NCBI GenBank assembly: GCA_963767005.1
Contig: CAVYCN010000007.1
Span: 64,001-128,000, forward strand
From: an uncultured Actinomycetes bacterium
Lineage (GTDB): Bacteria > Actinomycetota > Thermoleophilia > UBA2241
DNA: 64,000 nt
Reading direction: 5' to 3'
In this document: piece after piece, positions 54,385 through 60,706 of the stretch
Layout of the letters: each line of letters starts with the position of its first letter
How positions within the stretch are numbered: position 1 is the stretch's first letter
Position numbers and translations under genes: made by a program
Notes under the pieces: model-generated
What the model was told of the DNA's origin: nothing
Database searches by the model: none
What the model saw: only the letters and a program-made list of their open reading frames with translations

Positions 54385-55293
54385 CTAGCGCAGCACGCGG
54401 TTGGCGATCTCGAGCATCTTGGCCGGCAGCTCGGCGTGGTGGCGCACGCGGAACACCTCGCCGCGGCCCACGCCGGCGAGGCGTTCGCAGAGCGCCGGGT
54501 CCATCTTGTAGTCCTCGGTGAGCAGCACGTGCAGGCGGGGGAACGCGTCGGCCGCCGGCACGGGGTCGCCGCCGGCCGTCGAGACGCCGTCGGTGATCAG
54601 CAGGCCGGCCTTGCGCGGGTTGCGGCCACGCCGCACCTCGCGCCCGCCGAGGCGCAGGCCGGCCTCGATGTTCGTGTAGCCGCGGGCCGGCTCCGACAAG
54701 AGGCGGGTCACGATCTCCTCGGGGTCGTCGCGCTCCTCGAGGCGGGTGACGGCGCGCGCGACGCTCTCGAAGACCACGACCGACAGGTCCTCGGGGCGCA
54801 GCTTGAGGGCCAGGACGGCGGCCGCCACCGCGGCGATCGCGAGATTCTCGCCGGCCATCGACAGCGAGACGTCCATCATGAGGACGAGCTGCTGCTCGGT
54901 ATCCTCGCGACGCTCGACGATCCAGTCGTCACGCTCCGGGAACCGCTTGCCGGCGACGTTCTCGAGCGTCACTTCGACCTCGAGCTCGCCGCGGAACGGC
55001 TCGTCCATGACCTCGAGCACCGGCCGCGTGGCGCGTCTGATCGGGCCGACCAGCCGCCAGGCGCGGCGTAGCACGGCGGCCGTGGCGATGCGGCGGGCGT
55101 AGGCCTTGAGCTCGCGGCTGCCCTGGGTGAGGCTCGTGTCGGTCAGGCGGGTGGCGACGGCCCAGCCGTCGACCGCGTCGGGCTCGACGCCGAGGCGCTC
55201 GGCCAGCACGACGTGCGCCTCGGCGTCGGTGAGCGGCGGCTCGGGCGGGCGGCCGCGCCAGGGCGCCGCGGGCACGCCGGCCGTCACGATCAT
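54385..55293 (-). CDS. vWA domain protein (probably the C-terminal half of a frameshift fusion with the upstream AAA+ gene)
   Basis: MIDAS motif DVSLSM, GYTNI and ITDG. The frame stays open upstream into the A7 run at 55335-55329. Confidence 0.88.
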   Translation of the reverse strand: MIVTAGVPAAPWRGRPPEPPLTDAEAHVVLAERLGVEPDAVDGWAVATRLTDTSLTQGSRELKAYARRIATAAVLRRAWRLVGPIRRATRPVLEVMDEPFRGELEVEVTLENVAGKRFPERDDWIVERREDTEQQLVLMMDVSLSMAGENLAIAAVAAAVLALKLRPEDLSVVVFESVARAVTRLEERDDPEEIVTRLLSEPARGYTNIEAGLRLGGREVRRGRNPRKAGLLITDGVSTAGGDPVPAADAFPRLHVLLTEDYKMDPALCERLAGVGRGEVFRVRHHAELPAKMLEIANRVLR

Positions 55294-55335
55294 GACCGGC
55301 CGCCGCTCCCCGGCGGCGGCCGTCAGGCTTTTTTT
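55293..55335 (-). other. Candidate -1 frameshift signal: A_AAA_AAA heptamer plus downstream hairpin
   Basis: CCA AAA AAA GCC TGA, then TGAC-GGCCGCCGC-cgggga-GCGGCGGCC-g-GTCA. The -1 frame is the vWA frame and contains no stop. Confidence 0.7.
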
Positions 55336-56156
55336 GGCGCGGCGGCGACGAGCTCGTCGAGGACGTCGGGCAGCGGCGCGTCGGTCTCGTCGCGCAGCTC
55401 GACGCGCGTGGGCAGCGCGGCGCCGGCGGCGCGGCGCAGGGCGTCGGGGGCGTCGGTGCGGGCGGCGATCGCCACCATGGCGATCGCCGCCCGCACCGAC
55501 GCCCCCTTGCGAAAGCGCGGGTCGCTGCGTGTCGCCCTGGTCACGGCCACGGCCGCCTGCACGAGCTCGAGGTCGTCGCAGCCGGTCTCGCGGCGCACGA
55601 TCTCGCTCTCTTCGTCGGCATCCTGATAGTCGAGGCCGACGTGCTCGAAGCGATCGCGCAGCGCCTCGGACAGGTGCCCCGTGGCGATGTACTCGACCGG
55701 GTTCTGGGTGGCTACCACCTGAAAGCCGGGCGCCGCCCGCACGTCGCCGATGCGCGGCACGATCAGCAGGTGCTCGTCGAGCGCCGGCAGCAGCACGTTC
55801 TGCACGGCCTCGGGCATGCGGTTCAGCTCGTTCAGGAAGAGCACGGCGCCGGCGCGCATGGCCTGCACGAGGGGGCCGGCGAAGAAGGTATCCTCGGTGT
55901 AGCCCTGGGCCAGCACGAGCGGCGGGTCGAACCAGCCGGTGAGCTTGCTCTCGGAGTAGCGGTCGTCGCCGTCGACGCGCACCAACGACCGGCCGAGGTG
56001 CTCGCAGACGGCGAGCGCCACCGTCGTCTTGCCCACGCCGACGGCGCCCTCGAGCAGCAGGTGGCGGCCGCTCTCGAGCACGGCCAGAGACATGGCGAGC
56101 TCGTCGTCGCGGCCGACGATGCCGTGCGCGCGCTTGATCTCGGCGATGGGGCCCAC
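55323..56156 (-). CDS. MoxR-type AAA+ ATPase
   Basis: IVGRD, HLLLEGAVGVGKT, LFLNELNR, VATQNP and ALRDRF. Probably leaderless after TATGCT. Confidence 0.9.
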   Translation of the reverse strand: MGPIAEIKRAHGIVGRDDELAMSLAVLESGRHLLLEGAVGVGKTTVALAVCEHLGRSLVRVDGDDRYSESKLTGWFDPPLVLAQGYTEDTFFAGPLVQAMRAGAVLFLNELNRMPEAVQNVLLPALDEHLLIVPRIGDVRAAPGFQVVATQNPVEYIATGHLSEALRDRFEHVGLDYQDADEESEIVRRETGCDDLELVQAAVAVTRATRSDPRFRKGASVRAAIAMVAIAARTDAPDALRRAAGAALPTRVELRDETDAPLPDVLDELVAAAPKKA

Positions 56157-60620: not shown

Positions 60621-60706
60621 TGGTGCCGGAGGTGGGACTCGAACCCACACGGGCGCTGGCCCGGGCGATTTTAAGTCGCCGGCGTCTACCGTTCCGCCAC
60701 TCCGGC
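60621..60706 (-). tRNA. tRNA-Leu (anticodon TAA; bldA-type)
   Basis: GCCGGAG acceptor stem, D arm, CT-TAA-AA loop, long variable arm, GGTTCGAGTCC and encoded CCA; TATACT upstream. Confidence 0.96.

Follow-up and report, generated by a model that had tools for sequence, protein, structure and literature searches.

A 64,000-nucleotide (nt) stretch of DNA from an uncultured Thermoleophilia bacterium (hereafter the window) contains a gene for a MoxR-type AAA+ ATPase that runs into sequence encoding a von Willebrand factor A (vWA) domain. We conclude from the sequence that these are very probably a single recoded gene. The two open reading frames (ORFs) overlap in the -1 phase across a conserved heptamer, and the predicted products are a short ATPase and an ATPase-linker-vWA fusion. 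What is new is a known frameshift device in an uncharacterised MoxR/vWA family. The features of the locus are collected in Table 1.

Table 1. Features of the ATPase-vWA locus in window coordinates
Feature	Position	Strand	Product or basis
Zero-frame ORF, MoxR-type AAA+ ATPase, 277 amino acids (aa)	55323..56156	-	Short product and N-terminal half of long product
Slippery heptamer A_AAA_AAA (X_XXY_YYZ), first A at codon position 3	55329..55335	-	Sequence
Spacer of 6 nt: last sense codon and zero-frame TGA stop (TGA 55325-55323)	55323..55328	-	Sequence
Predicted 10-base-pair (bp) G+C stem with 6-nt loop, likely 3' stimulator	55297..55322	-	Fold
-1 frame: linker, helical region, predicted finger, vWA domain with intact MIDAS, 315 aa	54385..55332	-	
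ATG for separate 302-aa vWA protein (gene callers' choice), probably no real start	55291..55293	-	

The junction has the elements of a -1 frameshift signal

An earlier examination of these letters (the sequence-only reading) had singled out the end of the ATPase ORF, and its description was accurate. The ORF ends CCA AAA AAA GCC TGA. Its seven consecutive A's (A7; 55335-55329) form the longest A/T run of the window and are phased as an in-frame A_AAA_AAA. The whole genome (3.44 Mb, 71% G+C) has five runs of seven, A7 among them. Across both frames there are three AAA lysine codons, all inside the run; AAA makes up two of the six lysine codons in the ATPase and one of seven in the -1 frame. No stop codon interrupts the -1 frame until 54387. 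The long product would comprise 275 + 315 = 590 aa, in agreement with the fusion of about 590 residues first proposed. Within the -1 frame, the peptide SLTAAAGER is encoded upstream of the vWA ATG.

In E. coli, A_AAA_AAA and C_CCA_AAA both count as shift-prone; stimulators of -1 shifting generally begin 5-8 nt downstream (PMC4066793). In the window, an in-frame X_XXY_YYZ heptamer lies where the two ORFs overlap in the -1 phase and a predicted 10-bp stem follows at 6 nt. By eye, no upstream stimulator resembling a Shine-Dalgarno (SD) sequence was evident in the window; relatives were not counted for this feature. An Rfam scan gave two chance matches, far below gathering scores and neither at the junction.

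Phase, heptamer and stop are conserved among relatives

Relatives were collected by a scan of genome contigs (28 loci) and from the best 80 of 341 metagenome matches. Whole-genome searches added loci from 25 of 25 genomes of the window's own family, 3 of 125 from other families of the class, 6 of 66 from an archaeal phylum and 6 of 251 from another bacterial phylum. The total was 154 loci, in which the same genome is sometimes repeated, and 146 ATPase ends could be classed. Clustering at 90% protein identity left 75 representatives.

Among the 24 genome loci with both halves readable, 22 have the vWA in the -1 frame. The two exceptions are an in-frame fusion (L010) and a fused gene beside an ATPase-only gene (L028). 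Record labels of the -1 loci span Actinomycetota, Verrucomicrobiota, Chloroflexota, Bdellovibrionota, Deltaproteobacteria, Sumerlaeota and one archaeon. The 146 ATPase ends divide into 111 in the -1 phase, 15 fused, 15 with no visible vWA, 3 in the +1 phase and 2 that are separate genes in the same frame. For the 75 representatives the corresponding numbers are 53, 12, 6, 2 and 2. An in-frame X_XXA_AAN heptamer occurs in the last 63 nt at 110 of the 111 -1 junctions (52 of the 53 representatives). As background, such heptamers were present in 11 of 589 control windows of 60 nt, placed upstream in the same genes. In 79 of 79 -1 junctions examined, the run of A's starts at codon position 3, be it 4, 7, 9 or 10 nt in length, and C_CCA_AAA is the heptamer of 23 of the 53 representatives. 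Hence, the collected pairs retain phase, slippery site and stop across phyla, and some orthologs are in-frame fusions; these comparisons came out in favour of the sequence-only reading. Locus L082 has lost most of its vWA half and, with it, an intact heptamer; L107 has a broken site identical to that of L082.

We considered whether the frame change could be a homopolymer error, the true run being A8 and the gene a plain fusion, or whether the gene is broken or the run is a phase-variable switch. Isolated indels do occur in some loci (L005, L017 and L132, the last in the -1 phase with its indel further on), and mnmA of the window genome appears to change frame near its 3' end. However, run length and phase are identical in dozens of independent assemblies and in contigs from public sequencing runs, and the C_CCA_AAA form has no long run at all. 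Phase variation would mix lengths among close relatives, but all 13 A7-type genome loci have exactly seven A's. Two independent public runs provide contigs with a gapless A7: one from an RNA library (X20) and two from X3, a run guessed to be DNA. All three derive from relatives about 90% alike, and contigs cannot measure rare A8 molecules; the gapless A7 nonetheless argues against homopolymer error. Assembly error is not the explanation because 53 of 75 relatives under 90% identity are in the -1 phase and 12 are in-frame fusions. We regard error, breakage or phase variation as extremely unlikely. The junction is, by comparison of these sequences, a real and conserved recoding signal.

A hairpin recurs downstream of the heptamer

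The sequence-only reading had described a hairpin of about 13 bp starting 3 nt after the heptamer. The 13-bp form, which begins at 55325, is indeed the predicted fold of 55328-55286 (z -2.04; 10 of 200 shuffles were as good). Hence, on the window sequence alone, the hairpin is only modestly unusual. The 3-nt start did not hold up: the part kept in close relatives is a 10-bp core (55322-55313/55306-55297) that begins 6 nt after the heptamer.

A perfect stem of at least 7 pairs, starting 5-9 nt after the heptamer, is predicted in 22 of 57 relatives, compared with 6.8% of 2766 control positions. For stems of at least 10 pairs the values are 8 of 57 relatives and 0.9% of controls. The mean fold z-score just past the heptamer is -1.08 (n=55), as against -0.25 to +0.08 at eight other offsets. 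The stem sequences differ between groups (L009, L042, L046 and L114). A 3' hairpin thus recurs with different sequences, which again favours the sequence-only reading.

Read on the opposite strand, the stem precedes a run of seven T's. Hairpin and run could then be the intrinsic terminator of an antisense transcript, and a consensus scan did find a terminator-like site on the + strand at 55312-55324 (3 such sites were found in the region and 1.1 expected). However, the strong stem stops 6 nt short of the T-run, C_CCA_AAA loci would yield only T4, and a terminator would not keep codon phase on the opposite strand. We consider a terminator barely conceivable.

The vWA half has no conserved start codon

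The simplest alternative to a frameshift is two ordinary overlapping genes. An internal start or translational coupling would yield the vWA protein, and the richness of the ATPase end in lysine would be incidental. Coupled genes usually overlap in the -1 phase. The window itself has, 30 nt past the stop, an ATG that an SD-like loop precedes by 12 nt; most loci contain some possible start codon, and the sister-clade locus L142, on a Rhodococcus plasmid, is genuinely split.

The start is not kept, however. The vWA ATG and the SD that the sequence-only reading placed inside the hairpin are specific to the window genome. At the position of the window ATG (55293), close relatives have ATC, AGC or AGT, and they carry other loops. 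Over the stop, the -1 codon at 92 junctions is CTG (76), CTA (8), TTA (3), ATA (1) or one of ATG, GTG and TTG (4 in all). An ATG is found within 15 codons of the heptamer at 6 of 107 junctions. A start with a strong SD precedes 18 of 49 ATPases but only 1 of 49 internal vWA starts. In addition, these 70% G+C genomes could encode lysine by AAG; nonetheless, 110 of 111 junctions retain AAA in heptamer phase. The vWA start codon is thus not conserved in the sequences compared, and we judge two ordinary genes very unlikely.

Ribosomal or transcriptional slippage

A long product could also arise without any ribosomal shift, from messages in which the polymerase has added an A to give A8. Outside Thermoleophilia, most lineages carry A9-A10 without a hairpin (none of the 12 low-G+C relatives has one), and two loci appear to have changed run length (L010, A11 and fused; L182, A11 and +1). 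Polymerase slippage has been linked to runs of more than seven A's, and longer runs gave higher shift rates in chlD (PMC3711429). Conversely, the window run is only seven long, and in 23 of 53 representatives the heptamer is C_CCA_AAA, with four A's. Polymerase slippage needs more than four, and these loci therefore point to ribosomal shifting. Similarly, a run starting at codon position 3 is needed for tandem tRNA slippage but not for slippage by polymerase; the fixed codon phase and a hairpin 6 nt downstream would both be superfluous. The RNA-library contig is gapless over the run, but rare variants are lost in contigs. As an account of the window, transcriptional slippage is unlikely. From the sequence features we read the window's lineage as using ribosomal shifting, with polymerase slippage possible in other lineages.

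Several observations weigh against a conserved ribosomal frameshift. Locus L183 is in the -1 phase with no such heptamer and L182 carries its A11 in the +1 phase. The Rhodococcus plasmid locus L142 is a genuine two-gene pair. Many loci come from one Thermoleophilia family, and kin are not independent. No perfect stem of at least 7 pairs was found in 35 of 57 relatives, including all 12 of those under 62% G+C. Only 4 of 49 representatives lack any ATG, GTG or TTG before the first conserved vWA motif, and some internal vWA initiation may take place. Three sister-clade genomes have only the fused gene and no A-run; hence, the short subunit is not needed everywhere. At L028, the two ATPase copies match at 780 of 780 nt, possibly through an artefact of assembly. 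Finally, the Walker B motif of the ATPase reads NE, which leaves its ATPase activity putative only.

The ATPase is of the MoxR type

In Pfam, the ATPase half matches AAA_5 (76.9 bits) and AAA_3 (51.6 bits). The Walker A, sensor I, arginine finger and sensor II residues (K43, N152, R169 and R222) are invariant in 22 aligned relatives. Walker B is N109-E110 in all 22 aligned ATPases, rather than DE (window 55827-55832, - strand), and mostly EE in the sister-clade rows inspected. The Walker B aspartate binds magnesium (PMC9976466); here an asparagine takes its place and the catalytic glutamate is kept. The vWA half matches VWA_CoxE (38.8 bits) and VWA_2 (36.6 bits). [quoted passage not shown] Comparing the vWA half with solved structures by sequence found nothing useful.

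A search with the fused sequence returned 385 proteins, and the best 120 of these are mostly full-length fusions of about 600 aa. We modelled one natural fusion (P0001; 102-row alignment). In the model, which has a predicted local distance difference test score of 91, the AAA+ domain ends at residue 278 and a disordered linker occupies residues 279-302. This model places the shift site at the boundary of the domain, where the last AAA+ helix ends and before the disordered linker begins. The top structural matches of the modelled ATPase half are NorQ/CbbQ (9qh4, E 7.6e-17; 6l1q, E 4.3e-16), and no ChlI or ChlD chain is among the structural matches listed.

No NCBIfam family scored over its cut-off, either for the window protein (GvpN 99.2 bits, cut-off 266.8; MadB 72.5, cut-off 475; CobS 20.6) or for 18 fused relatives. 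In a quick tree of 75 ATPase rows, which contained no GvpN, CoxD or RavA rows, the family is a 48-row clade (SH-like approximate likelihood ratio test 99) adjoining a 12-row clade. The 48-row clade stands apart from the ChlD-type rows, two NorQ rows and the MoxR-proper rows, in a tree whose base did not resolve. A search of 121 genomes for GvpN references found none, nor did any control match. The family profile of the ATPase scores MoxR/NorQ proteins at 69-103 bits and ChlD-type proteins at 14-27 bits. For the vWA half the order is reversed, with 28-49 bits for ChlD-type vWA domains and 14-26 bits for NorD. The ATPase is MoxR-type, not ChlI/ChlD; NCBIfam scores, structural matches, tree and searches with ChlD-type proteins bear out the original assignment. 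Membership of the CbbQ/GvpN/NorQ subfamily was considered and rejected, with GvpN and MadB below cut-off and the family in its own clade apart from the two NorQ rows of the quick tree.

Proposed mechanism and fused genes

We propose that most ribosomes would stop at the TGA and release the 277-aa MoxR-type ATPase. A minority would slip back one base, probably by tandem slippage of the P- and A-site tRNAs, and make the 590-aa ATPase-linker-vWA subunit. The hairpin 6 nt downstream may help slippage in A7 and C_CCA_AAA lineages, and polymerase slippage perhaps contributes in A9-A11 lineages that lack a hairpin. Short and long subunits would join in one hexameric ring that carries about one tethered vWA domain, as expected for a shift rate near one in six. 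The vWA finger might then enter the pore, and the MIDAS grip a client protein, as in NorQ/NorD. In that system, one NorD binds the NorQ hexamer (PMC9976466) and its finger enters the NorQ pore (PMC13036017). CobS/CobT is built on the same plan as NorQ/NorD (10.64898/2026.10.09.757910).

Gene arrangements elsewhere favour such a scheme. In L099 and L028, an ATPase-only gene beside a fused gene encodes the same two products without a shift; the L099 copies are about 79% alike. One genome (G074) holds both fused and shifted forms, the two forms are interleaved in the ATPase tree, and the fused L010 retains an A11 run. Several fused/shifted pairs were found via the shifted gene, so their tally is biased. 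We also observed a fused ATPase-vWA paralogue, in some cases with altered motifs, directly upstream of the shifted gene in L054, L058, L060, L062 and L086.

Gene neighbourhood

In the window, tauE/safE and DUF1634 genes (57345-56194, - strand) end 37 nt before the ATPase start, and an SPFH (Band 7) gene (54237-53344, - strand) follows the vWA. This order, tauE/DUF1634-ATPase-vWA-SPFH, is common only to close relatives. In many Thermoleophilia loci (L048, L054, L058, L064, L086, L102 and others) a small HEAT-repeat gene comes just after the vWA stop, often followed by a DAK2/FakA-like or transhydrogenase/alanine dehydrogenase gene. Six Bdellovibrionota-like loci (L018, L019, L020, L021, L025 and L026) have lysine 5,6-aminomutase genes kamD/kamE, in a lysine fermentation cluster, upstream of the shifted gene. 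A B12-enzyme client is possible in this clade. Two loci have corrinoid methyltransferase genes as neighbours. Scanning 47 of 117 extracted neighbour ORFs revealed no client common across lineages.

Locus L142 (NZ_AP023173.1, 3953-5881) has its split MoxR and vWA genes in a mycofactocin-linked short-chain dehydrogenase/reductase cluster, on a plasmid of a cultured Rhodococcus, and makes a handy natural control. Elsewhere in the window, a 726-aa ORF (60208-58028, - strand) has no Pfam match at E 0.01. It contains a CSAWAAWG stretch, C-terminal-looking, which to our eye recalls Ntn-hydrolase/C45 peptidases. A gene for tRNA-Leu(TAA), the rare-codon tRNA of high-G+C actinobacteria, is at 60621-60706 (- strand).

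A second candidate junction joins iscU to mnmA

A genome scan for heptamers between long ORFs gave seven cases, of which only two were convincing: the ATPase-vWA junction and another A7 run, outside the window (G000:C2:514941-514947, - strand; L143), that joins an iscU/nifU ORF in the -1 phase to an mnmA lacking a start codon. Its relatives are L144-L173. In the family, one of the two heptamers is present in 24 of 28 readable loci, as A_AAA_AAA in 15 and C_CCA_AAA in 9. No start codon occurs in the 60 nt before the MnmA ATP-binding motif at 22 of these 24 loci. The remaining four of the 28 comprise three with separate genes that have starts and one with no heptamer. None of the 24 has a perfect downstream stem of at least 7 pairs. 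In the genomes with both junctions, heptamer type agrees in 14 of 15 (G032 differs), although these represent few genera and are not independent cases. In L143, the MnmA-like sequence seems to change frame near its C-terminus, possibly owing to an assembly indel. Our literature search found no paper describing an iscU-mnmA frameshift.

MnmA thiolates tRNA-Lys(UUU), the reader of AAA, and self-regulation by frameshift has a precedent in release factor 2, which controls its own synthesis in this way. When tRNA-Lys lacks its thiolation, -1 shifting at the lambda G/GT site increases (PMC3296357), making a feedback loop at iscU-mnmA plausible. A broader scheme would have the state of lysine tRNA control both junctions, with more shifting when the tRNA is under-thiolated. 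MnmA would regulate itself by frameshift and adaptor-bearing MoxR subunits would rise when sulfur or iron-sulfur is short. We offer this tentatively and consider it unlikely.

Discussion

To our knowledge, few chromosomal bacterial genes have programmed -1 frameshifts, and archaeal examples are fewer. The present work adds a candidate family spread over several phyla and archaea. Automatic annotation of this family yields two genes, with a probably false start for the vWA protein. Chelatases, it appears, are not alone in producing a short AAA+ and a long AAA+-vWA subunit from a single gene. This bears on whether the device is ancestral to AAA+/vWA machines or had more than one origin. It also offers a natural way to ask how many vWA domains a MoxR ring needs. 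To tell ribosomal from polymerase slippage, the C_CCA_AAA and A7 forms, some with hairpins and some without, are ready-made material, and the iscU-mnmA junction could be a new feedback loop on tRNA modification.

The sequence-only reading had supposed the device to be undescribed outside chelatases, and no paper on a MoxR/vWA frameshift turned up in our literature search, although the supplement clusters of PMC3711429 may include the family. In a 2025 frameshifting preprint, MoxR/vWA terms are absent from the main text.

The closest known system is the frameshifted chlD (fs-chlD) of magnesium and cobalt chelatases (Antonov et al. 2013, PMC3711429; Kuznetsov et al. 2022, PMC9227772; PMC5009743). 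Like fs-chlD, the window locus would be one gene, AAA+ then vWA, with short and long products. Each has an A-rich -1 site at the domain boundary with a stop directly after it and 3' structure, and both families include fused relatives and a two-gene alternative. In fs-chlD, an A-rich -1 site divides an AAA+-linker-vWA product of 500-800 aa; here the product would be 590 aa. Over 13 nt, the window heptamer, next codon and stop equal a tested chlD cassette, which shifted at 10% +/- 6.25 in E. coli (PMC3711429 supplement). In those parts of the chlD literature consulted for comparison, C_CCA_AAA did not occur.

The ATPase differs, being unlike ChlI/ChlD and on a separate long branch in the tree. 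A ChlI/ChlD-type assignment was rejected on scores of 25.5 bits for TIGR02031 (BchD-ChlD; cut-off 499.55) and 17.9 for TIGR02442 (cut-off 779.45). The Chelatase DB rule requires matches of ChlD queries at E 1e-6 on both halves. With 12 actinobacterial ChlD-type queries, which differ from that paper's own three, there was no match to the N-terminal half of the locus and the best to the C-terminal half had E 0.007. No CobN/ChlH large subunit (PF02514) was matched in the genome (completeness 100), compared with matches in 5 of 14 controls. Some published fs-chlD genomes, such as those of Spirochaeta thermophila and Brevefilum fermentans, also have none (PMC9227772). Profile scores, ChlD-type queries and the missing CobN/ChlH led us to reject a chelatase role. 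Hence, with a MoxR-type ATPase and no CobN/ChlH, the gene appears from its sequence to work like fs-chlD and not to be a member: the same device in a non-chelatase family.

The solved folds closest to the ATPase half come from NorQ/NorD and CbbQ/CbbO, which are MoxR AAA+/vWA chaperone pairs (PMC9976466, PMC13036017). Shared features are a single AAA+ module of about 270 aa and a partner with a MIDAS and a predicted finger ahead of the vWA core. However, those systems use separate genes adjoining client genes, whereas here the vWA is reached by a change of frame. The window vWA half is much shorter than NorD and barely aligns with it, Walker B is NE, and no neighbour is common across lineages.

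The signal itself resembles those of E. coli dnaX and the IS3 family, with X_XXA_AAN and a hairpin 5-8 nt downstream (PMC3711429, PMC4066793). As in dnaX, two subunits of one ATPase machine would come from one gene. In dnaX, however, shifting yields the short product, with help from an upstream SD, while in the window it would yield the long one.

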